From Escherichia phage NHEP1, in sequence record PQ511146.1: a stretch of DNA of 64,000 nucleotides; one strand, 5' to 3'. Positions 2,878 through 34,512 of this stretch are shown here, piece after piece (within the stretch, counting starts at the first letter, position 1; every line of letters starts with the position of its first letter). The notes below the pieces were generated by a model that was not told the DNA's origin, searched no databases, and was given only the letters and a program-made list of their open reading frames with translations. Position numbers and translations under genes: made by a program.

Positions 2878-4997
2878 AAATTGTAAAACGGGACGGTAGA
2901 GAAGAGGTCTATAACGGAGTTAAGGTAATCAAGGCGGCAGAGTCCGCCTTACTTGAGTCTGGGCATACTGAAGAAGAAGCTTACCGGATCGCTTGTACGG
3001 TTAATGAAGTTGTTGCCAACAATCTACCAACCGACCAGTGCACGATCTCTGTAAAAAATATCCATATCCTTGTTGAAGATGCTCTTATGGATATGGGTTT
3101 AAAATGTGCAGCCAGAGAATATATCCAGTATAGACAGACAAGAGATAATAACAGAGAGGCAGGTGGAAAACTGCTTGCAGATATTAGTGGCTTCTTGGAT
3201 CGAACTTGTGATGAATTTACAAAAGAAAACGCAAATAAGCCCACTAATCATGTACATACTCATCGTGACCTGCTTGCAGGTATCCTTAGCAAACACCTTG
3301 CATCAACACAGATACTGCCAGATCGTGTCTCCGAAGAGCACAACAAGGGATTCATCCATGTGCATGATCTTGACTATCTGATCAGTCCGTTAACAAACTG
3401 CTGTTTGGTGAATTATCCGGATATGCTGGAAAACGGATTCAACATTGGCAACGCCCATGTCAGTAAGCCGAAGTCAATAGGGGTTGCAACAACAATCCTC
3501 AGCCAAATCTCTAGTGCAGTAGCTAGTGCTCAATATGGTGGTCAGACCATGAGCCATATTGATCATTACCTGGCGCAGTATGCTGAAGCAACCTATGAGA
3601 AGAATCTTAAATTTTGTCAGGAACATTGGTTGCCGGATGCTGAGACTGTTGCAATGCAAATGACGGATAAAGACGTGTTTGATAGTATGCAAACTTTGCT
3701 ATACCAAATCAATACGTTAACTTCTGTCAACGGGCAAACCCCATTCATCACATTAAGTTTAGGACTGGATACCTCAATCTTTGGTAGAATGATTACCAAA
3801 AACTACCTGAAAGTCCACAAAATGGGTCTTGGTGAAGAACGTATCACACCTGTGTTCCCTAAGGTGCTGTTCTTCCTGGAGGAGGGTATCAACATGAACC
3901 CTGGGGATCCTAACTATGATTTGAAACGATTAGCTCTGGAATGCTCTGCAGAGCGGATTTATCCTGACTTCGTATCTGTACCACTAAATAGAAAAGTGAC
4001 AGGTTCAACAGAAGGTAATGTCACAAGCATGGGTTGCCGGAGTTTTCTTAGCAAATACAATGACTTGGAAACAGGAGAGGAGAAATACCTTGGCAGATTT
4101 AACTTAGGTGTTGTTAGCCTTAACCTACCAATGATTGCGGCAAAAGCTAAAACGGAAGGTGTTGATTTCTTTGCAGTTCTTGACGAGTACTTGGATCTGG
4201 CATACGAGGCTCACCTTGTAAGGGTTAACCGTCTAAAAGGAACAAAGGCAGGGCAGAACCCCATCATGTGGTGTGAAGGAGCCCTTGCTCGCCTGGATCC
4301 TGAAGAGAGCATTGATAAACTCTTCTATGACGGGTATGCTTCCATAAGTATTGGGTATATTGGTGTGTATGAAACCTGCCAGATTTTAGGCAGAGAGGGA
4401 GACAAGTCCTTAGCTCTTGGGATCCTTCAACACATGAAAGACGCTTGTGATCGGTACAAAAAAGAAAGTGGTCTGGCATTCAGCTTGTACGGCACTCCTT
4501 CAGAGAGCTTGTGCTATAAGGCTGCAACATGTCTAGATCGTGAATACCCTGAAGTGTTGAAGCACGAGCACGAATACCTTACCAACAGTTTCCACCAACC
4601 CGTGTGGATCAATAGCTCACCTTTTGACAAGTGGAAGTATGAGGAAGGTTTTGCTATGATCTCTTCTGGCGGCAACATTGGATACATAGAAACACCTAAC
4701 CTGAAAAACAACCTGGATGCTTTGGAATCCCTTGTCGATTTCGGGTATAAACACATTATGTATTTTGGTATTAACCAACCTGTGGATAAATGTCTTAAGT
4801 GCGGATTCTCTGGTGAGTTCAGTGCAACAGCTAAAGGCTTTGTATGCCCAGAGTGCGGAAACCATGAAGAGGGAACGATCAGTGTGATTAGACGTGTATC
4901 TGGGTATCTGTCCAGTCCAAACTCCCGCCCTTACAATAAGGGTAAGCAGGCTGAGGTTATAGAACGGGTTAAGCACTACGGAAGTTGTGGTTGCTGA
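2874..4997 (+). CDS. nrdD: Anaerobic ribonucleoside-triphosphate reductase (class III)
   Basis: 707 aa; C-terminal zinc ribbon CLKCGF...CPECG and glycyl-radical motif RVSGY. Confidence 0.9.
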   Translation: MKIVKRDGREEVYNGVKVIKAAESALLESGHTEEEAYRIACTVNEVVANNLPTDQCTISVKNIHILVEDALMDMGLKCAAREYIQYRQTRDNNREAGGKLLADISGFLDRTCDEFTKENANKPTNHVHTHRDLLAGILSKHLASTQILPDRVSEEHNKGFIHVHDLDYLISPLTNCCLVNYPDMLENGFNIGNAHVSKPKSIGVATTILSQISSAVASAQYGGQTMSHIDHYLAQYAEATYEKNLKFCQEHWLPDAETVAMQMTDKDVFDSMQTLLYQINTLTSVNGQTPFITLSLGLDTSIFGRMITKNYLKVHKMGLGEERITPVFPKVLFFLEEGINMNPGDPNYDLKRLALECSAERIYPDFVSVPLNRKVTGSTEGNVTSMGCRSFLSKYNDLETGEEKYLGRFNLGVVSLNLPMIAAKAKTEGVDFFAVLDEYLDLAYEAHLVRVNRLKGTKAGQNPIMWCEGALARLDPEESIDKLFYDGYASISIGYIGVYETCQILGREGDKSLALGILQHMKDACDRYKKESGLAFSLYGTPSESLCYKAATCLDREYPEVLKHEHEYLTNSFHQPVWINSSPFDKWKYEEGFAMISSGGNIGYIETPNLKNNLDALESLVDFGYKHIMYFGINQPVDKCLKCGFSGEFSATAKGFVCPECGNHEEGTISVIRRVSGYLSSPNSRPYNKGKQAEVIERVKHYGSCGC

Positions 4998-20547: not shown

Positions 20548-20763
20548 ATGAAAATAGAGATATTTGGTGGGGCTGACAACACTCGTGGCCTGATTTACCT
20601 TGAATTCGATGAATCATACCTGCCAGAGGTGTTAAATATAGATGCTGTTGCGGAAGCCCTTGATGTAGACCCTAAAGATCTCTACTCCCGTGCTGAGATT
20701 GATGGTTGGGAAGAGACTCTGAACATTGATTTCAGTGAAGTAGTAGATGAACCTTTGGACTGA
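20548..20763 (+). CDS. Small acidic hypothetical protein
   Basis: ATG 20548 after GAGGAG; 71 aa. Confidence 0.4.
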   Translation: MKIEIFGGADNTRGLIYLEFDESYLPEVLNIDAVAEALDVDPKDLYSRAEIDGWEETLNIDFSEVVDEPLD

Positions 20764-23270
20764 CACACAAGTCTGCTTTGCAGGTTTAGCTGCTCAGCTA
20801 AGGTTCTGGAGGCACCTATAACATCTTCCAACTAAATTTCCTACCAACACAGTTACTTACCTACCACACATGACTGTTTGCTTGTTTAGTGAGCAGTCAT
20901 CACTTGACATTCTTGCCTATCTTGATAAAATTAAGTTCTTCTCTTTTCTTTTACCGAGTAATTCGGGTTTTCTGTTCTCTTCGGTTTGAAGGGGTATGGA
21001 GATACACCTGAGTGAACAGGGTGAACAACCGAACCTTTAGCTATGGCATTAGCATGGCGAAGCGGACGGGTGACGAAAGAGGGGCCGGAGGACACCAGTC
21101 ACTGCCATATAGTATATGGGTGATAACCTGAAGAGTCTGAATAAGTGTTTAAGTACCAGTCAGAGGAAAAGGTGAATGGTAGCCGAAGGGGGAGGGGGGT
21201 TTCTTATATCTTTAATTTGTATACTTTATATACACTTGTAAACCAATTCAATTAGAATCTGTTTACCACACAAAGGGGATGGAGACAAATATCACCTATT
21301 AAACTTGAATTATTTATAGAAAATACCACAACACCCGTTAAGTCTTTGATTTTACACACAAATCTTACAAATATCCTACCTCCACATTTAACATACTTGT
21401 AACATATTCCATATCCTACCTGCCTGATCAATTTACTCCATCACATTCCCACATTTTCCCTGTCTGTACTACCCCACCCCCGCCGGGAGTCCCGTCATAT
21501 CTGGCTTTCCAGCAAATATCACACCAACAAATATCATCACCTGAAGAGGGTTTCATCCCATAATACCTGCCTTACCTGAAGAGCGCTTCATACACCACGT
21601 AAATTTTTTAATTGACCCCTCCCCGCCGCCAGAGAGGTTGGCTTTTCCCACACAGGCCTGAAGAGTCAGCCAGAAATATCTGAACAGGCAGTTATGTCCC
21701 GATTTTGTGCTTGTCCTACAGGAGTGCTGCCAGGCGGACGGAATGGGAATACTTCTCATTCTTATAATAATTCTCAAATATCGAGGCAGTGAGGCAAATT
21801 AATAGGCCAGGCCGTTCACACAGTGGCACAACATTTGCAATCTATCTTGTGTGGATGAATGAGAATACCTATCATTGTGAGAATGGTTATCATTACGGGC
21901 AATTTAACATAATACCCATTATGCGCACCACTGGCGATACATACAGGGATTGATAACATGGGTTACTGTTTACGCATATAACAATTATATTTCTTACTAT
22001 TTGTGTGGGATATAGTTAGCAACCAATAGATTAGATATTGACCTGCAGACTTCTGACCGTCCAGACGTCTAAACGCCCACACAACAAGGATTATACATAC
22101 ACTCCTGCATGTAACCAGGGCCGCAAAAATGCTACCATACCAGTTTGTAAATTTTTCATGCAGCACTTGACAAAGAGGAGAAAAACTTGTCTGACACAAT
22201 GTGACAATTTTGTCACTTTTGACACTTTTACCTTTGACACAATATGACACAATAACGGCTGTTACTATTCCATATCTCACTGTTTACGCCTGAATAGTTT
22301 ACGCAAAAACTGTTTACACAGAGATGATAAGCCATGCCATTCGTTTGCATGAAAACAATTAACAAGATAACAATTGACAAGCTAACAGCCAACAAGCTGA
22401 CAGTTAATAAGTTAATAAGTTATGACATAATATAAAAGCAGGGCAACTATTAGAAGATCTATAGTTGCCTTGCTTGTTATGTCATGATTAACTAAATACA
22501 AGGCAACTATGATCTGAATAATAGATTGCAGACAAACTATCACGGGGGTGATTGTTACTGCTTTTATATTATGTCGCGACTCCGTCGCGCCATGCCATTC
22601 GTTTGCATAGTTGCCTTATTGTTACAGGTAAAACAATTACATTATTAATTATTTCTTATCTTTCTCTTAGTCATCTAATGATTCCAGTCAGTATAGTAAT
22701 GTACAGTAAACATTAGACGACTAAATATTTCTCTGTGTATAATAACTTATCGTGACAATTTCGAACTGTTTACGAAAAATGTTGACACCTGAGCTGATTT
22801 ATGTTATGCAGTTTACACGAATAATTATTTTATGCAGGTATTGACTATTCCGTTATTCTGTGGTTGGAATAAATACTTTGCAGACTATAGAATGGCGTGC
22901 GTACGTGAATTCTGAGATCTGGCGGCTATAGTTATACTCGATTTTTCGCGTAGAACACGCTTTCGATGCTGTGTAAGTGTATGACTTATAAAGATTTTTA
23001 GTTGTTGACAAGATATTGGAGATGTGCATCAGGTTAAAATTTGTGCAATAGCGGCATTACGTGCACTTTTGGGAGAGAAAACGGGTAAAAATGGCCCTGC
23101 TACCACACAATGAAAGATTATGCAATAGTTATTTTCCATGTATATTTGTACAGTATGTGGGATTGATGGCTAGTCAATTATTCCACTTGCCAGGTAGGGC
23201 CGTTTATGGTAGGAGAAGAGCAGACAAAAAGAAAGGGGCCTTTAAGCCCCTTGATAATTCAGTTAAGAAA
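20764..23270. repeat. ORF-poor, repeat-dense non-coding zone at the convergence of plus and minus transcription blocks
   Basis: No convincing ORF of 100 aa or more; at least five short repeat families seen (see findings). Confidence 0.6.
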
Positions 23271-23690
23271 TTATAATGATTCGTATATTTCAAAAATCCG
23301 ATTTGCCAGGTCGTTACGGTAGCGGAATTTTTCATCGCGCTTGATCATTAAATCCTTATAGCCGTACTCTTTAAGCACTTCATTAACTTTATAGCGGCAT
23401 ACCTGCATATTATCTTGAGCGTCACCAATAAACTTGTTGCTGTGGTGCATTGCTTTAATTTCTTCTTCCAGGACCAGGGCAACTACCCGGACCGGATCAA
23501 GCTGATAGGCGGTAACATCTATGCGGCATTGTAGACGGCTTTTAACGTCTGCCACCGGATATACTGCAACCTCTTCCCCGTCAACATTGACAATAATTAG
23601 TTTACCATCGATTTCGAATCCTTTCGCCGCCGGACCGTGACAAAAAGCGTTATCAAAGCTATATGCCGGATTATCAGATTTAATGTTCAT
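23271..23690 (-). CDS. Hypothetical protein
   Basis: Track ORF 139 aa; ATG with AGAGG RBS. Confidence 0.5.
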   Translation of the reverse strand: MNIKSDNPAYSFDNAFCHGPAAKGFEIDGKLIIVNVDGEEVAVYPVADVKSRLQCRIDVTAYQLDPVRVVALVLEEEIKAMHHSNKFIGDAQDNMQVCRYKVNEVLKEYGYKDLMIKRDEKFRYRNDLANRIFEIYESL

Positions 23691-23834: not shown

Positions 23835-24098
23835 TTATTTGTTGCTCATCCAGTTTTCCCAAGCTGCCTGATAATCTGCCTCACTACGGCGGATCTCTTC
23901 TTGTTCTTCAAGCCGGATCTCTTCTTCCAGGTACCCCAAGATGTCAGCCTTTTTAGTCTGGCGCAACATCCAATCGTCTTTTTTGCGAGTAAAGATCTTG
24001 TACGCTTTCTCGCAAACTTCTTTTTTGCTACCTTTTTGGACTTCAAGAATTCTGTAAGCCATGTACTGAACTAGTTTGAGCTGGTCAAGACGTTTCAT
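23835..24098 (-). CDS. Hypothetical protein
   Basis: Track ORF 87 aa; promoter and hairpin upstream. Confidence 0.45.
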   Translation of the reverse strand: MKRLDQLKLVQYMAYRILEVQKGSKKEVCEKAYKIFTRKKDDWMLRQTKKADILGYLEEEIRLEEQEEIRRSEADYQAAWENWMSNK

Positions 24099-24161: not shown

Positions 24162-24434
24162 TTACTTACGGCGGCAAAATTCAAGTGTTTTTAATTGATA
24201 ATCTTCCTCAGCCTGGAGTACAACCGCCTCGATCATTTCGTTGGCATTGTTGAAGCCATACCCTTGAGCGAACTCATCCGCGCCACCTTTGTGATCATGT
24301 TCTGCGTTCATCGCTTCCACAAAATGGAATTCAAGATTATTGAGGTAGGGGCTTGATGTTCCGTCCTCTTTTTCGATGAGATCCCAGATAGCGTTAAAAC
24401 GTGATTCGACTTCTTGGTTAATCCAGCTTGACAC
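24162..24434 (-). CDS. Hypothetical protein
   Basis: Track ORF 90 aa. Confidence 0.5.
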   Translation of the reverse strand: MSSWINQEVESRFNAIWDLIEKEDGTSSPYLNNLEFHFVEAMNAEHDHKGGADEFAQGYGFNNANEMIEAVVLQAEEDYQLKTLEFCRRK

Positions 24435-24537
24435 GGCGTTTTCCTCTCTTCTGGTTGTTGTGTGGGCACTTTTGCCCCTTCAAGGTAAATGCTACCCCAC
24501 CACCCGGCAGATGTCAACGGTTTTTATAGTTTTTTAT

Positions 24538-24588
24538 ATGACAGGCACCCCCGGTGATTGTCTCCCCCCGTCGCCAGGTGCCTGCCGT
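24538..24588. repeat. Imperfect hairpin element (copy A), related in inverted orientation to 33699-33880
   Basis: ACAGGCACCCCCGGTGATTGTCTCCC is the exact reverse complement of GGGAGACAATCACCGGGGGTGCCTGT at 33854-33879. Confidence 0.6.
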
Positions 24589-24639
24589 GAAATAAGCATA
24601 ACAAAAAACAGGACAAAAACAAGCCCTGTTTTGTAAAGA

Positions 24640-24843
24640 TTAGATGATCTGCATATCCTCCACGATAATTTCTAATTTCCAAATAAGATGATCTAAGCTC
24701 CCTGATAAAAATGATTCCGATACATAACCGCCATCGGATACCGTAGCAAGGATCTCGCCATTTGCTTGCTCTTTGATTTGAACATCCAGGCGGTTAGCCT
24801 TTGCTTTATTCAGGACGGCGATCAGGCGGTTAGCTGTAGTCAT
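24640..24843 (-). CDS. Hypothetical protein
   Basis: Track ORF 67 aa. Confidence 0.45.
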   Translation of the reverse strand: MTTANRLIAVLNKAKANRLDVQIKEQANGEILATVSDGGYVSESFLSGSLDHLIWKLEIIVEDMQII

Positions 24844-24927
24844 GGTGTTTTCCTTCCAGTTGTGAGCGGCACTATTGCCGCCCTACGTGATACATCTTAC
24901 ACTATCCGGCACATCATGCAAGCTATT

Positions 24928-25119
24928 TTATACTTCCTCACCTATAAAGTCGGATCTATTCTTCTCCGTCATGCGTTTAAGTAGTTCTTGCATGTTGCTG
25001 ATAGCTTGCAATGTATCTTCTTCCAGGCTTGAATCAAGATAATCAGGATCATTCTTCACCTTGCTATGATTGTGATACCGCAACGCTGCTAATACCTTTC
25101 TAACTTGTTCTGCATTCAT
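24928..25119 (-). CDS. Hypothetical protein
   Basis: Track ORF 63 aa. Confidence 0.45.
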   Translation of the reverse strand: MNAEQVRKVLAALRYHNHSKVKNDPDYLDSSLEEDTLQAISNMQELLKRMTEKNRSDFIGEEV

Positions 25120-25131
25120 TTTTATTACTCC

Positions 25132-25344
25132 TTAAAACCAGGTGCCAACCGTTTCCAATAGGTCACTGACTACCAGAACAACACCGATTAGCACATATTT
25201 AATCAGGAAGGGGATTAGCGCCAGCGCCGCTACTATGATCCCCATTGTCATGATTATTTTTCTCATGGTTAACGGTTCACGTAAGTTTTTTTTTCCCATC
25301 TTCTGATCCTCTGTTAGCATACGATAGCGATCACGCCGCCACAA
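25132..25344 (-). CDS. Small membrane protein
   Basis: Two hydrophobic segments. Confidence 0.45.
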   Translation of the reverse strand: MWRRDRYRMLTEDQKMGKKNLREPLTMRKIIMTMGIIVAALALIPFLIKYVLIGVVLVVSDLLETVGTWF

Positions 25345-25577
25345 ATAGAAGGTAAATCAAAACGGTCTAACTTGCAAGCTATTTTTAAACGAAAGGCAAC
25401 ATAAAAGAAAATTTGCAAACAATCGATCATTGTGTTAGCTGTTGAAACGCTGCCAGCATTAAACACCACCCCGCCCACGGCGTTAAACGTTGCGTTACTC
25501 ACGAAAGCGGAAAGGCAAGCGATCACGGTGGCGATCATAATGTTGCGTTTTGTCAATCTGTAGATGATGTTTTTCAT
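25314..25577 (-). CDS. Hypothetical membrane-like protein
   Basis: Start moved to ATG (MKNIIY) downstream of the promoter and GGCGGCAGCATTGCCGCC hairpin that the longer track ORF reads through. Confidence 0.45.
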   Translation of the reverse strand: MKNIIYRLTKRNIMIATVIACLSAFVSNATFNAVGGVVFNAGSVSTANTMIDCLQIFFYVAFRLKIACKLDRFDLPSICGGVIAIVC

Positions 25578-25646
25578 TCTGTCATGTTGGCGGCAGCATT
25601 GCCGCCCTACGAAATACATTCTACCCGATTTGTAATTGTTGTCAAA

Positions 25647-25916
25647 CTAATTTTTCAAGCTCGACCAGTCAAAACACGGCGGGATCTCGTTAAAACTTGT
25701 GCCCTGTAAAGCACATAATTTTTTAGCAATAGCCGCCGTGACCTGGCGCTGTACGCGCGGATCTGCTACTGATTGGAGAAAGTAGGCGGCTTTATACGTG
25801 ATCATGCTTTCGCCTGTTTCCTTGCTAACATGATGCACTATTTTAGCCTTATCATCTTTTACCAGGGTGTAACCGGATTCGATGGCCTTGATTGCAACGT
25901 CCAATGATATTTTCAT
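25647..25916 (-). CDS. Hypothetical protein
   Basis: Track ORF 89 aa. Confidence 0.5.
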   Translation of the reverse strand: MKISLDVAIKAIESGYTLVKDDKAKIVHHVSKETGESMITYKAAYFLQSVADPRVQRQVTAAIAKKLCALQGTSFNEIPPCFDWSSLKN

Positions 25917-25963
25917 GATTTATCTCTTTATTGATGGCGGGGAATACTCCCCCGCCTTATTAA

Positions 25964-26134
25964 TTACTCTTCATCGTCGCCGTTATAGTATTCAATGCCG
26001 TTTTCATCGGTTACGGTAATATTAACGCCACCGATAGCAACACGATCACGGGCAAACGTCATGGCTTCATTTAAATCTTCAGACCAAAAAATATTGTGAC
26101 CTTTGCGCGATACGTAAAACATAGTCGGGATCAT
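25964..26134 (-). CDS. Small ORF (56 aa)
   Basis: Not in track; ATG preceded by promoter plus GC-clamp hairpin cassette; translation MIPTMFYVSRKGHNIFWSEDLNEAMTFARDRVAIGGVNITVTDENGIEYYNGDDEE. Confidence 0.4.
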   Translation of the reverse strand: MIPTMFYVSRKGHNIFWSEDLNEAMTFARDRVAIGGVNITVTDENGIEYYNGDDEE

Positions 26135-26216
26135 GATTTGTTTCTCTTTTGTTGTGAGCGGGAAACCATTTCCCGCCCTATGTGATACATCTTAAACTAA
26201 TTTAAAACGTTGTCAA
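26135..26216 (-). promoter_or_regulatory. Promoter (TTGACA-N16-TAAGAT) followed by GC-clamp 5'UTR stem-loop (PeSL-like cassette)
   Basis: Minus-strand hexamers map to plus 26211-26216 and 26189-26194; hairpin GAGCGGGAAACCATTTCCCGCCC at 26156-26178. Confidence 0.5.
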
Positions 26217-26446
26217 TTATTTTCAAAAAATTTTTCTGCCGTGATATTCTTCCCGGTAGGGTTCGCTACTTTCAAAATTTTATCATGCACTGGACGCCCA
26301 AAAGAATAAGCGCCGTACACAGTGCACCAATAATCGCCGTCAGGCTGTACTATTACCGCCGCATAGGGTACGCCTTTTTCGTTTTTGCTGACAAAATAGA
26401 TCACATTGCCATTAATAGCCTCAGCGCGTTTAATTTGTTCCATCAT
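26213..26446 (-). CDS. Hypothetical protein
   Basis: Track ORF 77 aa. Confidence 0.5.
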   Translation of the reverse strand: MMEQIKRAEAINGNVIYFVSKNEKGVPYAAVIVQPDGDYWCTVYGAYSFGRPVHDKILKVANPTGKNITAEKFFENN

Positions 26447-26509
26447 GATGATTCACCTATCTTTATTTTTTCATAGTTTCAGGAGGGGCCTTTTTCGGCC
26501 CCGCCAGGC

Positions 26510-26794
26510 TTATTTATTGATGGCGTGCAGCGGGAAAGGTACGCCAGGTTGATAGATAACTTTTACAACCTCATCAGGGCAAAAGAAGTTACAAAATTCA
26601 CCCCGATAAGCTTCATCTTCTTTTAATTCTTCATCAACATACTCAAAAAAGTAGTCGATGCTTGGATAATCCTGGCCGGGATTATAGTCAACCATTGTCA
26701 GGACCAGTTCAAGATCGTTGCGTAGGATATGCATACCTGCTTTTAAGTATTTTGCTTCCATTTCTACTACATCGCCAACGGTAACAATAGCCAT
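26510..26794 (-). CDS. Hypothetical protein
   Basis: Track ORF 94 aa. Confidence 0.5.
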   Translation of the reverse strand: MAIVTVGDVVEMEAKYLKAGMHILRNDLELVLTMVDYNPGQDYPSIDYFFEYVDEELKEDEAYRGEFCNFFCPDEVVKVIYQPGVPFPLHAINK

Positions 26795-26998
26795 GGTTTT
26801 AACTCCTATCTATCTGGTTAATGATTGGAGGCCTCACCGCTCCCCCGACACCCTTTATTATCCATATTGTAGGACTTGATGCAAGTACTTCTTTAAAAAT
26901 TTTTAAGCGCCTTGAGGCCGCTGTAACGCCAAAATAATAAAGGCCATGCGGTTGCATAGCCATTAGATGATTATATCGCTGTAGGCCCTGCTGGGGCC

Positions 26999-27349
26999 TT
27001 ATTTTGCATTATTTCCTATATTGCCGCTACGGTACCAGCGTTTACGGTGAAAATGGTAATAATCGCCATCGGCATTAAACATCAGATGGTTTTCAATAAC
27101 CAGCTTACGAAGGTGGGCCGGATCTTGTTCCATTCTTGCCAGATTCTGGCGGCTGTTACGTAAGCGGATAAATTCCATATTCAGGCCGTTGATTGCAGCA
27201 TGGATGTCAAAGTAACCACCTTTGAGACGTTCACGCATGGCGTTAATCTCAACACAATATACAGATTTCTCACAAATCAAGGTATTAGCCAGGGCGCGGA
27301 CCTGGGCAAGGGGGTTAAGCTCATTAAGGTAATATAGTTTTACTTTCAT
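26999..27349 (-). CDS. Hypothetical protein
   Basis: Track ORF 116 aa. Confidence 0.5.
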   Translation of the reverse strand: MKVKLYYLNELNPLAQVRALANTLICEKSVYCVEINAMRERLKGGYFDIHAAINGLNMEFIRLRNSRQNLARMEQDPAHLRKLVIENHLMFNADGDYYHFHRKRWYRSGNIGNNAK

Positions 27350-27366
27350 AAAATAACCTGCTGAAA

Positions 27367-27672
27367 CTAGTTTGAGAAAACATCGTTCACAATAGCGATC
27401 ACAATGCCGTTCACCTTGTCACGGTCAACAATGCACAAATCACCATAGATCATGTGGTAGTCTGGATGATCTTTGACGGAATAGTCAATCAATGTTTTCT
27501 TATCATCCAGCTTACCAACTTCCATTCTCATAACGATATGAGAATCATCAAAGGCATTATTCCGAAAAGTCATAACCTGACCGCCAGGGCACCCAGTGAT
27601 TTCCACCTCCACGCCGTCTACGATCTGACCATCAAAGAAATAAAGATTATTAGCCTGGATAAACATGATCAT
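27367..27672 (-). CDS. Hypothetical protein
   Basis: Track ORF 101 aa. Confidence 0.5.
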   Translation of the reverse strand: MIMFIQANNLYFFDGQIVDGVEVEITGCPGGQVMTFRNNAFDDSHIVMRMEVGKLDDKKTLIDYSVKDHPDYHMIYGDLCIVDRDKVNGIVIAIVNDVFSN

Positions 27673-27716
27673 TACTCCTTTTTTGCACTGATTATTTTAA
27701 CAGGGTTTAAATTTAC

Positions 27717-27756
27717 TTTATTGATGGCCCTGGAATCAAGGCCATCTAAAAATAAA
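27717..27756. repeat. Conserved 40-bp hairpin cassette TTTATTGATGGCCCTG..CAAGGCCATCTAAAAATAAA (copy 1 of 3)
   Basis: Near-identical copies at 31423-31462 and 32045-32084. Confidence 0.6.
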
Positions 27757-27758
27757 TT

Positions 27759-27959
27759 TTACAGGCCTACAATCTCTTTAATTCGTTTTACTGCTGCCTC
27801 AGCGCCTTGAGGGTAAAAATTATGGTAACCAATCACGCGAGTGATACTAATCGCCGTTTGATGATCTTCATAATCACCTTTAAAGATTTCTTGACCGTCA
27901 ATCAGCACGGCAATTTTTTCTTCTTTTTTGAAGTTAATAACGCGGATATTGTTGCTCAT
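27759..27959 (-). CDS. Hypothetical protein
   Basis: Track ORF 66 aa; promoter, GGGGAGCAATCCCC hairpin and AAAGGAG RBS upstream. Confidence 0.5.
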   Translation of the reverse strand: MSNNIRVINFKKEEKIAVLIDGQEIFKGDYEDHQTAISITRVIGYHNFYPQGAEAAVKRIKEIVGL

Positions 27960-28434
27960 TTTGTTTCTCCTTTCTAGTCTTTGTGGTGGGGATTGCTCCC
28001 CGTTGATTGTTATTATCCATATTCCGGACCGGATTGCAACACCCTAGAAGAAAAATTTTTGAAAAAGTTAAGCCCCCAGGGATTGGGGGCCGTTATCAGT
28101 TACTTACAGCGATAAAGTACATCCCTACGCCTAACAATATTTCAAGAGCGATGATCTCAAGCCATACCGTAACACGGCGCACCTTATCGGTGCGGGGCTT
28201 ATCCTTGGGTGTCATCGTCTCCCCCTTTCCTCCTGTTAGCAGTTACGTGGTTTGCAATGGTCCCCAGGAGTATTATCACCACGCACATTACAAGAAAAAT
28301 TATCTCTGTCGTTGTTCGATCCATTGTTATAAAATTCCTTAAGATCAGGCCTGAAAATAAAGCTTTCGTTATTGAATCCATCCCGCCAGGCGGCTGGCTT
28401 CAAATCTTCACTAAATGGATTAATTAACGTGGCA

Positions 28435-28836
28435 TTATTTCGGCTGGCCCACATATTTTCTATTCCTCTTAAATAAGCGATCCGCCTCAGTTAAACAAAT
28501 CTCATGGGCGTGATCTCTGGTTTTAGCTTCATCGAAAACCTGTTGTGCAAGGCTGCAACGTAGGGAGACTGGAAGATCACTATAATAGGCGTTGACAAAC
28601 GTTTGAGCGTCGTACAGGTCTGAAAATACTTTACCCTTTCTATTATTCCCCTTGTCAACAATTGCAAGGATAACCAATACAATAGTTGCAACCACCCCCA
28701 GGAAAATAGATATAATAAACCATAAAAAGGCGGATCTTCCCATCTTGCCAGCGATCCAGGCGTTAAACAAGGCAACCAATACAGCCAAAATAATAAATTC
28801 CATTCTATGTACCTCTTTTACAGTTCTGATTAACAA
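28435..28836 (-). CDS. Membrane protein (two predicted TM segments)
   Basis: Hydrophobic stretches FIILAVLVALFNAWIAG and FLWFIISIFLGVVATIVLVILAIV. Confidence 0.5.
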   Translation of the reverse strand: MLIRTVKEVHRMEFIILAVLVALFNAWIAGKMGRSAFLWFIISIFLGVVATIVLVILAIVDKGNNRKGKVFSDLYDAQTFVNAYYSDLPVSLRCSLAQQVFDEAKTRDHAHEICLTEADRLFKRNRKYVGQPK

Positions 28837-28867
28837 TAAGGCGGCAAATATGCCGCCTGTTACCTGA

Positions 28868-29248
28868 TTAAAAATTATCGCCGTAAATCTTTCCGCTTTC
28901 TACCCATACCACCACGCGAGGCATACTATCCCACACGTCTTGTTTTAGATTGAGCGCGTGCAATTCTTCGGTGGTGCTCATACCAGGCACGGGCTGATTG
29001 TATACTGCAAAACGACCACCCGCATAATCATAGGCCAGGGTTAAATCACACTGGATCATCTTTTTGATCATGGCATTAAGCATGGCGTTAGCCGCATATT
29101 GATCACGTTTTAAAGGCAACTCTTTGATTAGTTTGCGATAGTTTTCGATATGGTCGCACACTGTTTCACGCGGAAGATCTTTCATATCTTCACGGAATGT
29201 GACCAGGTTAAACATAACGGTGTCAATAGCCTTGGTAGTGTTTTTCAT
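28868..29248 (-). CDS. Hypothetical protein
   Basis: Track ORF 126 aa. Confidence 0.5.
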   Translation of the reverse strand: MKNTTKAIDTVMFNLVTFREDMKDLPRETVCDHIENYRKLIKELPLKRDQYAANAMLNAMIKKMIQCDLTLAYDYAGGRFAVYNQPVPGMSTTEELHALNLKQDVWDSMPRVVVWVESGKIYGDNF

Positions 29249-29338
29249 GATGTTATCCTCTTTGTTTTGTGTTGGGGCAAACGTCTTGCCCCCTTGAGTT
29301 TTAATATAGCAGGTTTTTAGGTTATTGCAACACTTTAT

Positions 29339-29962
29339 TTATGAAAAAGTCATCTCACCATATTCATCGACATCAAACCGCCAATCATTGGCCTCGATAA
29401 GGCCGATCAGGTTTTCTGCGGTGAACTGTTCTAGATAGGCCTCCTCCAGGTCTACGTAAACCTTGCGGGATAGCTCCCGTGCCGTCTCGGTGATCAGTTC
29501 TTCCAGGTCTTCCACTTTGTTTTCTTGTTTGGCGGTCAGATCTAGCCAAGTGGTATCAATGTACCCGTTTACAGTGTTTTCATGGCTGTAATGGCTGTAC
29601 TTGTCGCGTTCAATACTGGCGGATAGTTCGCCATCGTGCATTGTGCCGAACAAGTGACGAATTGATCTGAACTTGGTCAGGGCCTTGACTTTACGCAAGA
29701 ATTTTTCTAAGTCTACATTTTCAGCACTGATCGATGCGCCATCGCCTTGACACCAAAAGCCGGACCAATGTACTTCGGTATCTTCAAGGCCGTACTCTGG
29801 AAAGATATATTCTTTGTAGTATTCAATTACATTTTCTGCAAAAAAGTCATCCCCGCTGCGTTCTTCTCTTTCGCGTACCATTTCAATGGCTTTTTCTTTT
29901 TGTTCGTCGGTCAGCACGTCGAAAGATAAATTGTAACCTGTGGTAATGTTAACGGTGGTCAT
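29339..29962 (-). CDS. Hypothetical protein
   Basis: Track ORF 207 aa; preceded by promoter and hairpin cassette. Confidence 0.55.
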   Translation of the reverse strand: MTTVNITTGYNLSFDVLTDEQKEKAIEMVREREERSGDDFFAENVIEYYKEYIFPEYGLEDTEVHWSGFWCQGDGASISAENVDLEKFLRKVKALTKFRSIRHLFGTMHDGELSASIERDKYSHYSHENTVNGYIDTTWLDLTAKQENKVEDLEELITETARELSRKVYVDLEEAYLEQFTAENLIGLIEANDWRFDVDEYGEMTFS

Positions 29963-30048
29963 GATATTTTCTCCTGTTTTCTTTGTTAGTGGCGGGAAGT
30001 TTTCCCGCCTGCGTGTTTAATTATACTTATTGGGATTTACTTGTCAAC
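29963..30048 (-). promoter_or_regulatory. Promoter (TTGACA-N16-TATAAT) followed by 5'UTR stem-loop GGCGGGAAGTTTTCCCGCC (PeSL-like cassette)
   Basis: Minus-strand hexamers map to plus 30042-30047 and 30020-30025; hairpin at 29991-30009. Confidence 0.55.
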
Positions 30049-30297
30049 ACTATTTTTTAAATTATTGTGGCGCAAAATGTTTAAAATCTCCTCAACGTCA
30101 TCAACACGGCGGCAATTTTTAAACGCTACCAATTGCCCCATGATTTTAATCACTGGGCGGCCTTGCCAGTGCCCCTGAAGAAAGCGCGCCTTGACTTTAT
30201 CGGTGGAACTATCACGCCACCAAATAGCCTTGTTGTTGCAGTAGTAAAAATTATTCAGGATAACATCAACTTTATCAAAATTTTTTAATTTACGCAT
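30037..30297 (-). CDS. Hypothetical protein
   Basis: Track ORF 86 aa. Confidence 0.5.
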   Translation of the reverse strand: MRKLKNFDKVDVILNNFYYCNNKAIWWRDSSTDKVKARFLQGHWQGRPVIKIMGQLVAFKNCRRVDDVEEILNILRHNNLKNSVDK

Positions 30298-30516
30298 GGC
30301 GTTTACTCCTTTCTCTCTTTGATGTGGTTAGTATAGCTAACCTGTTGACGATGTCAATGATATTTTTAACGCCATAAAACGGCCCTGGGCGATGTTTTCA
30401 GGTTAAAGGGGGGCGATTGCATAGGTGGGGGCCTTTTTGGCACTTACAGGGCCAACCAGGGGCGCTATTCGTAGGATAGAAATAAAAAGCCCCGCACAAT
30501 GGCGGGGCGTTGGTTG

Positions 30517-30738
30517 TTATTTGTCTTTATGGCGGTATCGTTCTGCCTGTCGTTCACGTTCCAAAAGTAGGCAGGGCAATTTACGATCATAATGATTCCG
30601 CCAGATCTTCCCAAACCTTTTTGGCTTATTCAGTTTATTGTTACGCTGTCGGCGTTCTGGCAGCTCTTCGGAATCATGAGGGCGCTTTACAATTTTCTCG
30701 AAATTAATTTTCATATATTCCCCCCTTGCTAACTTCAA
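30517..30738 (-). CDS. Small basic hypothetical protein
   Basis: Track ORF 73 aa, Arg/Lys-rich; chosen over the overlapping plus-strand ORF for strand consistency. Confidence 0.4.
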   Translation of the reverse strand: MKLARGEYMKINFEKIVKRPHDSEELPERRQRNNKLNKPKRFGKIWRNHYDRKLPCLLLERERQAERYRHKDK

Positions 30739-31075
30739 TATTGGCCTGAATGGCCCGGATACGGCGCTTTATAACTTCCTGATCTGTGTGGTCGTATCCC
30801 CAAAAGTCCACAATTTTTGCGCCCCCAGCCTCCAGGCGGTATAGTGTTTCCTGCATTTTGTAAGCCGGGATCGGTCGCGGTGTTACTTGGTCACCTTCTT
30901 TATTTTTATACTTTATAATATAATCTTCGTTATCGTTGAATTCCCAAAATGGATATTCTGCAAGGGCGGTACTTCCTCTTTCCTTTTTATCCTGGATCTT
31001 ATTTACAATTAAAGCCGTAGCAATAGCGCCAATAATAAAACTAGCCCCGCTGATCATGTTACTTTCTCCTTTCAT
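30704..31075 (-). CDS. Hypothetical protein with N-terminal TM segment
   Basis: Track ORF 123 aa. Confidence 0.5.
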   Translation of the reverse strand: MKGESNMISGASFIIGAIATALIVNKIQDKKERGSTALAEYPFWEFNDNEDYIIKYKNKEGDQVTPRPIPAYKMQETLYRLEAGGAKIVDFWGYDHTDQEVIKRRIRAIQANIEVSKGGIYEN

Positions 31076-31131
31076 GGTGTTAATAAATTATCTTTATAGA
31101 TGGCCCTGCAACCAGGACCACCGAAAAATAA

Positions 31132-31377
31132 CTATTTCACAATGCCTACAAAACAGATCCCGCCTTCACCTATGTAAGCAATATCGGTCACTTTGTAGTC
31201 GGTTAAGATCTGTTTATTCAGATCATTAATAAAATCGGTCATTGCGTTGGTGTAGTTGTCTTCTGTATCTAAGGCATAATCCCAGGTGTAAACCTTTTTA
31301 CGTCCGAAGCCTTTTACCATGATACGGGCGCTTTTGGTGTTAGTAGGGGCATAATACTTGGTGATTAGTGCTGCCAT
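31132..31377 (-). CDS. Hypothetical protein
   Basis: Track ORF 81 aa; GAGGAG RBS. Confidence 0.5.
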   Translation of the reverse strand: MAALITKYYAPTNTKSARIMVKGFGRKKVYTWDYALDTEDNYTNAMTDFINDLNKQILTDYKVTDIAYIGEGGICFVGIVK

Positions 31378-31422
31378 GGTTTTAACTCCTCATTAGTTCA
31401 GTGTTAACAGTGTAAAGTTTAC

Positions 31423-31462
31423 TTTATTGATGGCCCTGAAGTCAAGGCCATCTAAAAATAAA
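31423..31462. repeat. Conserved 40-bp hairpin cassette (copy 2) carrying a minus-strand TTGACT -35 in its loop
   Basis: Minus strand reads TTGACT-N18-TAAACT upstream of gene 31132..31377. Confidence 0.55.
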
Positions 31463-31464
31463 TT

Positions 31465-31806
31465 TTACTCGTTTTCTTCCAGCTTTGAAAGCTCTTCTTT
31501 CACTTCTTCAAGCTCTGTCTGCAATTCTTGGTATTCTTCGTCGTCCTCAATATCCAGGCTGTCGATGTAGTCGCTAAATCCGCAGCGGTAAGCGATAGGA
31601 TCTAACTCCTTGAGGATACGCGACGGAAGAAAAGAAATGCTTCCGATCATAATTTCGCCGTAGATCTCGTCTAACCATTCATCATAGTTTTCGTCGTACT
31701 TGTCCTCGTCGATTTCAAAGTTATCGATCTTGTTCTCAAGGTCTGCGATCTGTTTTTTCAGCGCGGCGATCTGCATAGCTTTTTCTGCGGCGGTCATAGT
31801 AGTCAT
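31465..31806 (-). CDS. Acidic coiled-coil-like hypothetical protein
   Basis: Track ORF 113 aa. Confidence 0.5.
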   Translation of the reverse strand: MTTMTAAEKAMQIAALKKQIADLENKIDNFEIDEDKYDENYDEWLDEIYGEIMIGSISFLPSRILKELDPIAYRCGFSDYIDSLDIEDDEEYQELQTELEEVKEELSKLEENE

Positions 31807-32044
31807 GGTGTTTTCTCCTTTTGTGTATTCTGGGAAGTTTTCCCGTTTACGTGTTTAAGTATATCAATCTAAGTTAGCTTGTCAATTAAAAATTTAAGAA
31901 AAATTTTGCAAAACTGTTAGCGCTACTCATTAACATTTGCGCCAGGATGTAACCGACAACGCAAACGATAATAGTTACCTTTGTGTATTGGCGTGTAGTG
32001 CTCATCTTAAAGCCCCCTTTTTCGCTTAGTTGAGACTAGTTTAC

Positions 32045-32084
32045 TTTATTGATGGCCCTGGAGTCAAGGCCATCTAAAAATAAA
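32045..32084. repeat. Conserved 40-bp hairpin cassette (copy 3)
   Basis: Same sequence family as 27717 and 31423. Confidence 0.55.
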
Positions 32085-32085
32085 C

Positions 32086-32490
32086 TTAATAAGTTTTCAG
32101 TACTTTACCGTCCAACCTGTCAAGCTGGATCTCAATAGCTGCAGAAAACCTATTGTACACCACGTCGCCCATGGAATCCAACCAGTCTATGACGTTATAC
32201 ACCTGCTCTTTGTTCTTGCAGGTCCGGATCCGTTTCATGATGTAAGCCGGATCAATATTGGTACTTTCGTTGGTGTTCCCCTGTACCTGATTTGCCGTAT
32301 TAGTTACATCTTTAATGGCCTTTACCACCACCTGGAAGGGCTTTAAGGTGCCTTTTGCGTTCATCTCACGCACTTTTGCGGCGCGGTTGTTATAGGTTAC
32401 ACAACGGCGGCAAATGTTCACTAAGTGCATGTCAATAATTTTTTCATCGTTTGCCAGTTCGTTCATGATGCGGCGTACGTTCTTATTCAT
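32086..32490 (-). CDS. Hypothetical protein
   Basis: Track ORF 134 aa. Confidence 0.5.
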   Translation of the reverse strand: MNKNVRRIMNELANDEKIIDMHLVNICRRCVTYNNRAAKVREMNAKGTLKPFQVVVKAIKDVTNTANQVQGNTNESTNIDPAYIMKRIRTCKNKEQVYNVIDWLDSMGDVVYNRFSAAIEIQLDRLDGKVLKTY

Positions 32491-32566
32491 GATCTTTTTC
32501 CTTTGTGTTGGCGGGAAACATTCCCGCCTTTTGTGATTAGTTTACTTGAATTTTGCAGCGTGTCAA
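32491..32566 (-). promoter_or_regulatory. Promoter (TTGACA-N16-TAAACT) followed by stem-loop GGCGGGAAACATTCCCGCC
   Basis: Minus-strand hexamers map to plus 32561-32566 and 32539-32544; hairpin 32510-32528. Confidence 0.5.
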
Positions 32567-32572
32567 CAATTT

Positions 32573-32971
32573 TTATTCGTGGGCGCATGTTACAATGTGC
32601 TTTTTATAGCCCAGGTGGTTAGCAAGTGCCGACAAAAACTCTTCTTCATAGATCCAGCCGTTGGCAGTGATCCCCATAGCATTTAATGCGCTCTCAAGTG
32701 CTGCATTAGCTTTATCGTAACCGTGACCGCTCGCCTTCCCGCCAGTATAACCGTACTTATTGTTCTTGTTGTCGTGAATCCAAAAAACACAGTATTGAGT
32801 GTTCCCGCTGGCGGCGGCATAATACCGGATCTCAGCTACTTCGTGCAAATTATTGTCATCGTCCAGGCCCACCAGATTATAAGCCTTGTAAAATCCACGA
32901 TCACGGCGGCAGTTCTTGACATCAGAAAAAGAAAAGTCCGCATTATCAAAATTAAAGGTAGTGGTTTTCAT
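32573..32971 (-). CDS. Hypothetical protein
   Basis: Track ORF 132 aa. Confidence 0.5.
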   Translation of the reverse strand: MKTTTFNFDNADFSFSDVKNCRRDRGFYKAYNLVGLDDDNNLHEVAEIRYYAAASGNTQYCVFWIHDNKNNKYGYTGGKASGHGYDKANAALESALNAMGITANGWIYEEEFLSALANHLGYKKHIVTCAHE

Positions 32972-33035
32972 GATTTTATCCTCTTAGTGTCTTTTGTGCT
33001 TTTAGTGTATTTGGTGTCAGAATGTATGTCAATAC

Positions 33036-33233
33036 TTATTTTTTATTAAACCAGTGGTTGATCTGGCCTTTTGTCAGGGCGCAACGATTAAGCTGTTGCC
33101 GGGTGTAGCTCTGACCGCGACGGAATTTATAAAGGCCTTGCCCGTTGTTGATGGTTACGTCCACCTGGCAAATCATTTGATCGGTGACGGCCTGGCGAGT
33201 GTTGCGACGTACTTTAATTCCGTAGGCGTTCAT
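33036..33233 (-). CDS. Hypothetical protein
   Basis: Track ORF 65 aa. Confidence 0.45.
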   Translation of the reverse strand: MNAYGIKVRRNTRQAVTDQMICQVDVTINNGQGLYKFRRGQSYTRQQLNRCALTKGQINHWFNKK

Positions 33234-33633
33234 GATTTTTATCCTCTCTGTTAATTAGTGTGGTGTTGTTCACCTTGCGAGGATAAGAATAACAGAACTA
33301 TCCGAGCTGTCAACCATTAGTTAGAATTATTTTTTGGGCAGAATTCTCCAGCCGCCGCCACTGCCAGGTTAACCATCATTTTTTCGTACTCTTCTTTATG
33401 TTCCAACGCTCCCGCCATAGCCTTTTCAACCAGGGCGATAGCCTCAGCGTCATTAATCGCTACATTTTCCAGGGGGGATCCTATTACCTTTCATTTTTGT
33501 ACCTCTTCTTCAGTTGTTGCCTACCCTGCATAGGCCCACCAGGTTTGCAAGCCTTCATTCTCCCCTACCTGGTCAGTTAGGTCCTGCCAGGCTGGCCCCG
33601 CCAGGTTGCAACGGTTAGCGCATCAGGTTAGAA

Positions 33634-34510
33634 TTTTTTTTTTTTTTGAAAGTGTTGACAGCGGCCCCGCCAGGTGGCACAATATACCTATCGAAAGGAC
33701 GGCAGGCACCGGTGACGGGGGAGACAACCACCGGGGATGGGCGCTGCATAAAATGAGAACGGTTATCATTATCATTTAAAAATTTATGCAAAAAATCCTT
33801 GCTCTCTTTGTCCTGTGTGATACTATAATAACAAGCCGGGGCAACAGGGGCCGGGAGACAATCACCGGGGGTGCCTGTTATTCTGCAAACGAGAATGATT
33901 ATCATTCAAAATTCTAAATGAGAACTTCTCGCATTTCATAAATTTAATTAGCATGCTAATTACCTACCGTGACAATTCTATATAAAATAATACCTCCTTA
34001 AGTATTTCCATATACAAATTTTAAAAATCCATTTCCGAAAACGAAAAATCGCTTTCGTTCCCAAAAATTTCAGGTCGAGCGCCGGAACGATTTCCAGAAA
34101 ATCTGATTCAGAAAACGAAAAACAGATCGAGTACTGAGAAATTTATCGAGAAAAATTTTCAGAAAATTCAATCTTTGAAATGAAAAACAGATCGAGTACT
34201 GAGAGAGATGTGCCTAAACTTCCTGATAATGATGGGCTTATTGTTATAAAAGGCCAGAAGTAAGTTGGGAAAGTTCTGGTAGATGGGTGAGAGTGTGTGC
34301 GGAAAATCTGGAACGGTGATTTGAAGTACGGTGCGAATGATAGAATGAGTAGCGCAGCTTATCGTGCCTGTCTTGAAAAAATCCATTTTAGTTTTCGATC
34401 CATTTTCTGATTTTCTAAGAATTTTAAAATATCCGACTAGGTAAAATATCAAAAGGAGGAAATCTATTTTAGAAACCCTCCTTATACTTGATGTGCCAGG
34501 GATTTTCAAG
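33634..34510. repeat. Repeat-dense non-coding hub: T14 tract, split hairpin element (copy B), direct repeats, 18-bp perfect palindrome
   Basis: T-run 33634-33647; GGGAGACAAYCACCGGGG twice; TAATTAGCATGCTAATTA at 33945-33962; GAAAAACAGATCGAGTACTGAGA twice. Confidence 0.55.
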
Positions 34511-34512
34511 TA

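Follow-up and report, generated by a model that had tools for sequence, protein, structure and literature searches.

Inverted copies of a conserved non-coding motif around an early gene block of Escherichia phage NHEP1 are probably separate promoter-coupled units

Why would one hairpin-forming element occur in inverted copies on either side of a 9-kb block of small genes in Escherichia phage NHEP1? The 64,000-nucleotide (nt) stretch considered here (record PQ511146.1, referred to below as the window) derives from a Vequintavirus, an rV5-like myovirus of ~137 kb, and the bracketed block at 24.6-33.7 kb comprises ~25 small hypothetical genes of early type. A sequence-only reading of the window had offered bidirectional terminators or structured-RNA elements as explanations, and had left room for the boundary of an invertible or mobile segment. 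The copies are most likely paralogous promoter-coupled leader or small-RNA modules. That they are promoter-coupled, conserved non-coding units, and not inversion sites or terminators, can be held with good confidence, while the full statement, that they are paralogous promoter-coupled non-coding cassettes of rV5-like phages which also act at the RNA level, is favored only slightly over its negation.

The inverted copies themselves are real. The window contains exactly three occurrences of an 18-nt core, GGGAGACAAYCACCGGGG, whereas 0.03 matches are expected from shuffling and none of 100 shuffled sequences contained three or more. The three cores are located as follows.

24549-24566, minus strand: core of copy A, GGGAGACAATCACCGGGG
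33719-33736, plus strand: core of copy B1, an exact match
33853-33870, plus strand: core of copy B2, an exact match

A repeat finder returned 24538-24566 and 33853-33881 as the longest inverted pair (29 nt, 97% complementary), and 24546-24568 and 33717-33739 as a second one (23 nt, 91%). When a sequence-only model built from 34 distinct homologs was used to scan the window, copies A, B2 and B1 were recovered with E = 6e-11, 1e-10 and 5e-7, respectively, and everything else had E > 2.7; a possible fourth copy at 21281 was dismissed as noise (E = 7). The exact 26-nt reverse complement of 24541-24566 that had been reported does exist, although its coordinates, given as 33854-33879, were one off and are in fact 33853-33878. 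The flanking arms also match as described, in that B1 has the 5' arm of A (ACGGCAGGCACC) and B2 has its 3' arm (GGTGCCTGT). What did not survive is the idea of a single copy B split by an insertion of ~105 bp. B1 and B2 are complete units 134 nt apart, both are found in 12 of 12 Vequintavirus genomes, and since each has a promoter of its own, they are best regarded as two tandem promoter units.

The conserved feature common to these copies is a linear motif of ~20 nt, GG-AGACAA-N-CACCG-N4-TGC, set in G-rich and C-rich flanks; its 11-nt core is GAGACAATCAC. In a gapless alignment of the 34 distinct units, eight positions are invariant (A-G-A-x-A-A-x-C-A-C) and nine nearly so, while the flanks vary. 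The core of phage GAP31 carries a 2-nt insertion.

All the copies are coupled to a predicted promoter. A sigma70-type -10 box lies 22-38 nt upstream of every genuine copy, in every phage examined, and reads into the copy. With promoters reading into all of the copies, their transcription is very probable. The orientation is far from symmetrical: a sigma70 promoter matching at least 9 of 12 positions was found upstream of the motif at 40 of 88 matches in the sense orientation versus 7 in the mirror orientation, and the promoterless matches arose by chance in GC-rich contigs of no relation.

Conservation of the units extends well beyond the genus. Copies A (minus strand), B1 (plus) and B2 (plus) occupy the same places in all 12 Vequintavirus genomes compared, and homologs of A and B2 were identified in uncultured phages as well as in Seunavirus, Certrevirus, Phapecoctavirus and Justusliebigvirus. 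In other genera, the short pieces that bear the element are 80-94% identical. Complete genomes contain two or three motif units at conserved positions, and the outward-facing arrangement of A and B, 7.7-11.9 kb apart, is kept in another subfamily. The invariant positions of the motif persist between subfamilies whose flanking sequences cannot be aligned, as well as in an uncultured phage (L010) to which none of 50,697 phage records is related at the DNA level. This last phage has five short units, each of which runs from a terminator hairpin through a -10 box and the motif to a T-run. Since the genes flanking a unit differ between genera, the unit is autonomous. Overall, the motif is better conserved than the surrounding genes and is always tied to an early promoter.

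No match to the motif was found in 5,426 E. coli genomes, and a 17-mer scan of 185,579 bacterial species (596 Gb) gave 85 scattered single hits, which is about the number expected by chance, with no enterobacterial enrichment. From these scans, the motif appears not to be host-derived. A literature search found no description of the motif, nor any transcriptomics or small-RNA work on rV5-like phages; in the rV5 genome paper, nothing beyond generic promoters and a "non-coding" box is mentioned.

Copy A lies inside the early gene array. The order on the minus strand is gene stop, hairpin, extended -10, copy A, A-tract, next promoter, and the gene 24434->24162.

24632->24605, minus strand: terminator-like hairpin AAAACAGGGC-TTGTTTTT-GTCCTGTTTT, just past the stop codon of the gene 24843->24640 (terminator scan and sequence)
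24603->24595, minus strand: extended -10 of the copy-A promoter, TGtTATGCT, with a predicted start near 24588 (sequence)
about 24588->24540, minus strand: copy A, the initially transcribed element ACGGCAGGCACCTGGCGACGGGGGGAGACAATCACCGGGGGTGCCTGTC (sequence; model E = 6e-11)
24517->24489, minus strand: next early promoter, TTGACA-17-TAGCAT, preceded by the A-tract, driving the gene 24434->24162 and lying outside the element (promoter scan)

The loop of the hairpin holds a weak -35 of the copy-A promoter (TTGTTT, 24622->24617), a layout like that of the promoter-plus-stem-loop (PeSL) cassettes discussed below. The hairpin is conserved in four genera. Homologs of the -10 box read TGnTATACT, TATTCT or TATTAT, with TTGCAA or TTGACT as the -35. 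A-type homologs (ukendt, phAPEC8, PD06, CR3, FBKp34 and metagenomic contigs) are preceded by this same cassette of hairpin and promoter, again inside the early gene array, and the unit is tied to no particular gene family, as the neighboring families vary between genera. The homologous hairpin in phAPEC8 is annotated as a terminator; for annotation purposes, upstream hairpins labelled in this way are the front halves of promoter cassettes. The site homologous to the next promoter, 24517->24489, is annotated as a promoter in phage Gotham. A-type units open like the generic leader hairpin of early transcripts (of the form GTAGGGCGGCA-ATNG-TGCCGC), with ACGG-GCGGCA-CC ... TGCC, and so look in sequence as if the motif had been inserted into such a hairpin.

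The B copies, by comparison, are found in a gene-free gap of ~1.3 kb (33234-34512), which is unannotated in phage isim. Their promoters and units are on the strand opposite to all neighboring genes, and the plus-strand order is as listed.

33606-33634, plus strand: promoter P0, TTGCAA-17-TAGAAT (promoter scan, sequence, repeat family D2)
33634-33647, plus strand: T14 run, after P0 (sequence)
33655-33683, plus strand: promoter P_B1, TTGACA-17-TGgCACAAT (promoter scan, sequence, repeat family D2)
33690-33748, plus strand: copy B1 unit, core 33719-33736 (model E = 5e-7)
33751-33771, no strand: operator O1, AAATGAGAACGGTTATCATTA, a palindrome just after B1; 16/19 to the Fur-box consensus, the best site
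33799-33826, plus strand: promoter P_B2, TTGCTC, 16-nt spacer, TGaTACTAT, an extended -10 (sequence)
33833-33880, plus strand: copy B2 unit, core 33853-33870 (model E = 1e-10)
33887-33935, no strand: operators O2, CGAGAATGATTATCA (33890-33904), and O3, the degenerate TGAGAACTTCTCGCA (33919-33933), just after B2
33900-34050, no strand: stretch of 27% GC within the gene-free gap (base composition)
34024-34204, no strand: three iterons of ~63 nt with GATCGAG, after the 27%-GC stretch (repeats)

Homologs of P_B2 elsewhere match better at the same position (CTTGAT, CTTGCA or TTGACA, followed by TATTAT or TATATT).

From these two layouts, each copy would be the first ~50 nt transcribed from a predicted host-type early promoter (sigma70, extended -10). 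A terminator-hairpin-plus-promoter cassette would drive copy A leftward, in the same direction as the early genes, whereas B1 and B2 would be read rightward, against the neighboring genes, out of a gene-free control region that includes operators, iterons and an AT-rich stretch. The "inverted repeat" thus comes down to two outward-facing units of transcription with a leader module in common.

That the repeat instead marks a segment which flips is hardly credible. In Gin/Cin/Hin-type invertible segments, short inverted repeats flank a multi-kb segment, and a 26-29-nt inverted repeat is indeed present at both ends of the 24.6-33.7 kb segment. Unlike those systems, however, no invertase gene was found here, no inversion isomers occur among relatives, and the repeats are promoter-coupled units, so that each copy is explained separately. 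The earlier remark that no recombinase is seen nearby was borne out, since the ten largest open reading frames (ORFs) at 23.2-36.9 kb lack a recombinase Pfam domain. When orientation was compared, copy A, the interior, the B copies and the flanks were colinear on one strand in every sampled Vequintavirus record; a single orientation is the consensus-level pattern in >200 database genomes, and the outward-facing arrangement is conserved across subfamilies. An invertible segment is therefore refuted at the consensus level. Phage recombination can use short homologies (PMC2839356), so rare isomers within a population are possible.

Rho-independent bidirectional terminators that insulate the block are likewise very improbable. 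On either strand, copy A does fold into a stable hairpin rich in G and C (-24.6 kcal/mol; z = -3.4 sense and -5.0 antisense). Yet no T-run follows any copy on either strand, the terminator scan returned none of them, and copy A lies between the separate, genuine terminator-like hairpin upstream of it and the next promoter. Moreover, B2 and many homologs fold no better than shuffled sequences.

A third proposal with very little probability is that the B copies are part of a small protein gene. A 96-amino-acid (aa) ORF at 33615-33905 on the minus strand matches PHROG 14993 (92 aa) with E = 4e-63 and is an annotated coding sequence in several records. It is, however, broken by a frameshift or stops in EdH4, L009 and L012 (three of seven close relatives), has no Shine-Dalgarno sequence, and has no counterpart in other genera, where the 2-nt insertion in the GAP31 core also speaks against coding. 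In addition, the variable base of the core is non-synonymous in two open frames on the ORF strand and falls inside a stop codon in the third. Over-calling of ORFs across B1-B2 probably gave rise to PHROG 14993, as an artefact. A plus-strand ORF over copy A (24376-24636) matches the same family only because the repeated element lies inside it.

Is the conserved entity then a folded RNA? B1 folds moderately well (z = -2.7); for B2 (z = -0.4), shuffled sequences do as well. Among the homologs, no excess stability was seen in CR3, FBKp34, ukendt, L010 and L038, so significance is limited to some lineages; single copies that fold well are A of the window, B2 of CR3, and a metagenomic copy (L144) in which a perfect 10-bp stem closes the core as a loop. 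A model of a conserved loop on a variable stem was dropped after two tests for a covarying stem proved non-significant, even though L144 fits it well. Stability favors the sense strand in 26 of 34 units, a weak hint for RNA. Rfam gave no hit at gathering thresholds for the window and relatives, and only chance-level ones at E up to 5, and a tRNA/tmRNA scan found none. The conserved entity is the linear motif in the initially transcribed region, and the hairpin, though real, is lineage-specific. Of the suggestion of a structured-RNA element, then, transcription stands as very probable, while conservation of secondary structure lacks statistical support. Several short resemblances to known systems were also discarded because they involve only 5-8 nt: the P22 boxB loop GACAA, the RfaH ops element, a sigma54 promoter in the 5' arm, the stem of type I-F CRISPR repeats, the preQ1-I tail, the 3' end of 16S rRNA, and CsrA sites.

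A number of these and other results count against an RNA role for the units. Conserved RNA secondary structure is not statistically supported: the mean folding z over the 34 units is -1.0 for the sense versus -0.6 for the antisense strand; RNAalifold on MAFFT alignments gave 0 pairs, because the 5' halves misalign; pairing of cognate arms is no better than that of non-cognate ones (-14.26 vs -13.88 kcal/mol, p = 0.21); and the flanking stems show just the complementarity expected of G-rich/C-rich sequence (mean z = 0.04, p = 0.39). A DNA-binding site would account equally well for strict conservation of a linear motif. Promoters and start sites are predicted, and two of the window's promoters, that of copy A and P_B2, fall below the threshold of the promoter scanner. 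With no T-run behind them, the Vequintavirus copies have no obvious 3' end. No target gene is seen for transcripts from the B copies, which would continue into replication genes in antisense orientation. Finally, a concordance of alleles between A and B2, described below, may reflect shared ancestry.

The strongest competing proposal at the DNA level places the motif at a transcription-activated origin or control element. There, the motif, which has G-runs and directly follows tandem promoters, would promote formation of an R-loop or of a primer from which the leading strand is synthesized, or would serve as a binding site or roadblock together with the operators, with A and B firing outward in opposite directions. 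This is unlikely, but it draws on a suggestive layout at B: three tandem rightward promoters, an element of 63% GC, two or three palindromes, the 27%-GC stretch and three iterons, all within the 1.3-kb gap. The combination of iterons, tandem promoters and operators looks like a replication origin or control center. The same layout recurs in phiTE, GAP31 and ukendt, and iterons with GATCGAGACC are also present in phiTE (L015 2680-2990; at least six copies) and GAP31 (L013 2640-2700). It also fits an origin that the conserved feature is a linear motif and not a fold, and that A-type copies of CR3, FBKp34 and L036 are likewise followed by an operator. Against it stand the variable distance of 22-38 nt from the -10 box to the motif and the fixed orientation of the motif relative to the promoter in all units, which fits a role in RNA or the non-template strand better than a site in duplex DNA. 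Furthermore, Vequintavirus copy A has no operators or iterons nearby, GC skew follows gene orientation only and does not switch at 33.7 kb, and the short units of the L010 type end in T-runs, like small-RNA genes. The T7 primary origin and T4 oriF and oriG are known examples of transcription-primed phage origins. The B locus resembles these in its tandem promoters followed by an AT-rich stretch and in its G-rich predicted transcript, but copy A lacks the AT-rich and iteron context.

The palindromic operators deserve description in their own right. The pattern TGAGAAT-N-ATTMTCA has 12 matches in the window versus 1.85 expected, and these cluster at two non-coding places, beside B1/B2 and at 21744-21892. 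The piece with O2 and O3 is the best conserved across genera (84-89% identity), and the cross-genus operator consensus is AATGAGAAT-N-ATTCTCATT. In 30 units an operator follows the motif within 115 nt, in 9 one precedes it, and ukendt and phiTE possess arrays of four. Compared with the Fur-box consensus GATAATGATWATCATTATC (7-1-7, TGATAAT-N-ATTATCA), the best site scores 16/19, yet the cross-genus consensus TGAGAAT-N-ATTCTCA has a symmetric T->G change. Given that change relative to the Fur 7-1-7 form, the operators may be bound by host Fur or by a phage protein.

Instead of B1, Seunavirus, Certrevirus and Phapecoctavirus carry at the corresponding position another near-invariant sequence of ~90 nt, designated RNA1 (GCCACCCCACGGCGAAAAGGCGGGGCTAAC...GGTCGGAAGGTGGATCGCCGG), which has its own strong promoter and is not found in the window. 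Its locations, by sequence comparison, are as follows.

L013 2329-2420, strand opposite to the genes: RNA1
L014 2849-2940, strand opposite to the genes: RNA1
L015 2338-2430, strand opposite to the genes: RNA1
L171 1096-1190, strand opposite to the genes: RNA1

A consensus fold of RNA1 with 19 pairs and one compensatory change is plausible, and no Rfam match was found. In GAP31 and R7 (both Seunavirus-like), phiTE and CR3 (both Certrevirus) and ukendt (Phapecoctavirus), the gap contains a promoter, RNA1, a second promoter, the B2 homolog, one to four palindromes, and iterons, all on the strand opposite to the genes.

Although inversion is not supported, the suspected mobile segment boundary was partly correct, since a recombination junction does appear at copy A; it points to homologous exchange and not to site-specific inversion. 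The gene at 24640-24843 (minus strand) and the cassette and promoter downstream of it are nearly identical to those of Justusliebigvirus PD06 (L172), a member of another subfamily, with ~3 differences in ~230 nt, whereas Vequintavirus EdH4 (L002) has an unrelated gene at this position. On the downstream side of the core, the window tracks EdH4, while PD06 tracks ukendt. A mosaic junction between phage subfamilies lies inside the copy-A unit, where the window is recombinant, and it indicates a recent exchange of an early gene module between subfamilies. BLAST similarity to other genera also begins or ends inside the core. Judged by these alignments, the unit also serves as a homologous-recombination linker for module exchange between subfamilies. 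In addition, the allele found in A, GGTGCC or CCTGCC, recurs in B2 in 11 of 12 genomes (a hand calculation from these counts gives a Fisher p of about 0.02, on genomes that are not phylogenetically independent), which suggests gene conversion or co-selection.

Recombination of this kind is a known property of PeSL cassettes, which act as linkers in T4-type phages (Arbiol et al. 2010, PMC2839356; PMC4122927). Could the copies be no more than a promoter with a stem-loop, their likeness being due to recombination or gene conversion without selection on the motif? The mosaic junction within the unit, the breaks of similarity in the core and the shared alleles of A and B2 all fit, as does an early region rich in hairpin-plus-promoter cassettes (families D1-D3), and PeSLs of T4-type phages also have G-tract/C-tract stem-loops downstream of the -10 box (PMC2839356). 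The proposal is nevertheless quite unlikely. Only two or three copies exist per genome, at conserved positions; the invariant positions persist across unalignable flanks and in an unrelated uncultured phage; and the other cassettes of the region (D1-D3) lack the three-copy motif by a sequence-model scan of the 64-kb window.

The parallel itself is close in some respects. Like PeSLs, the units combine an intergenic sigma70-type promoter with a G-tract/C-tract stem-loop (upstream, within or downstream of the promoter) among small early ORFans; the copy-A cassette, a hairpin with the -35 followed by an extended -10, is conserved in four genera; and the units mark mosaic junctions. They differ in lineage (Vequintavirinae and Stephanstirmvirinae) and in number, in that PeSLs occur in dozens of copies similar over ~100 bp, while the motif unit occurs only three times in 64 kb and at fixed positions. 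Unlike in PeSLs, a linear motif of ~20 nt is conserved across subfamilies independently of the stem-loop, and two of the copies drive transcription away from genes. The repeated hairpin-plus-promoter cassettes of the early block, on the other hand, are PeSL-like in a phage that is not of the T4 type. If the motif were only a recombination linker, the concept of modular shuffling by PeSLs would extend beyond T4-type phages.

The reading of the copies as promoter-coupled leader or small-RNA modules also has precedents among phage RNAs. The nutL and nutR sites of lambda and putL and putR of HK022 are short elements downstream of early promoters, in opposite orientations, that become active once transcribed. 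As with these, the copies face outward from a central block just after early promoters. Unlike them, the copies have no boxA/boxB or two-stem put structure and no Rfam match, no N-like factor was identified, and B1 and B2 open onto a gene-free region followed by antisense genes, with nothing downstream to antiterminate. A second group of precedents comprises P22 sar, lambda oop, P1 c4 and P4 CI, which are small antisense or immunity RNAs of phages. The predicted transcripts are similarly short, promoter-driven, non-coding and located in a control region. Since A and B are inverted, any leftward transcript across B2 would be complementary to RNA from A over 26-29 nt, and antisense pairing of the c4/CI kind is a possibility, but the candidate leftward promoter at B, ATGAAA-17-TAGAAT (33939->33911), is weak, with a -35 that lacks conservation. 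A purely antisense pair, moreover, would not be expected to keep the motif so deeply conserved. Overall, the motif is best filed as akin to known promoter/stem-loop regulatory cassettes and phage non-coding leader RNAs.

As a leader or small-RNA module, the motif would act as RNA, forming the 5' portion of short non-coding or leader transcripts that are recognized by a phage or host factor, perhaps in concert with the protein bound at the operators. Likeness among the copies would be maintained by selection on the motif together with gene conversion. A broader proposal is tentative and rather doubtful, namely that the motif represents a previously undescribed small-RNA or 5' leader family of the whole rV5-like supergroup (Vequintavirinae, Stephanstirmvirinae and uncultured relatives), which with the TGAGAAT-N-ATTCTCA operators and RNA1 forms a non-coding control center for early genes and/or replication initiation, possibly answering a host signal such as Fur/iron. 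Since rV5-like phages are widely used as candidates for phage therapy and biocontrol, the motif offers a concrete handle on their early regulation.

The wider setting of the units can be summarized from the window and its relatives. The stretch at 23.5-35.0 kb matches 284 phage records, the best of them with 91-95% identity over its whole length, and relatives annotate only small hypothetical proteins in the block. Genes of the plus strand occupy 1-20.7 kb, and every annotated gene from ~22 to ~61 kb is on the minus strand. Between these convergent blocks, a large non-coding region (20760-22300) is packed with short repeats, including ACCTGAAGAG (three to four copies), ACTGTTTACGC (four) and TGACACAATNTGACA (two). 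This region also contains the second operator cluster and a DnaA-box-like sequence, TGTGGATGA, at ~21851. Many GenBank records of the genus start ~1.3-2.1 kb before window position 23500, i.e., within it.

Within the early region, families of hairpin-plus-promoter cassettes, with the -35 in the hairpin loop and the -10 after it, occur at 27710-27770, 31086-31146, 31416-31476, 32038-32098 and 24861-26200. The generic 5' leader hairpin of early transcripts, GTAGGGCGGCAATNGTGCCGC, directly follows the -10 box and is found in the window at 24866-24886 and 25590-25610 (minus strand). In phAPEC8 (L128), the leader hairpin at 3529-3548 and 4944-4963 is annotated as a "PHIRE promoter" (phage-specific), yet it is located downstream of the promoter's -10 box.

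Two further annotations are of note. The 87-aa product of 23835-24098 (minus strand) is labelled "DNA translocase FtsK" in some relatives, which is implausible for a protein of such size and probably a propagated mis-annotation. Approximately 20 GenBank records (MG0656xx, e.g., L167), marked UNVERIFIED and named "Campylobacter phage" with C. jejuni as the host, match this E. coli Vequintavirus at ~91-94% identity throughout the region, and host misattribution or contamination is the likely explanation.

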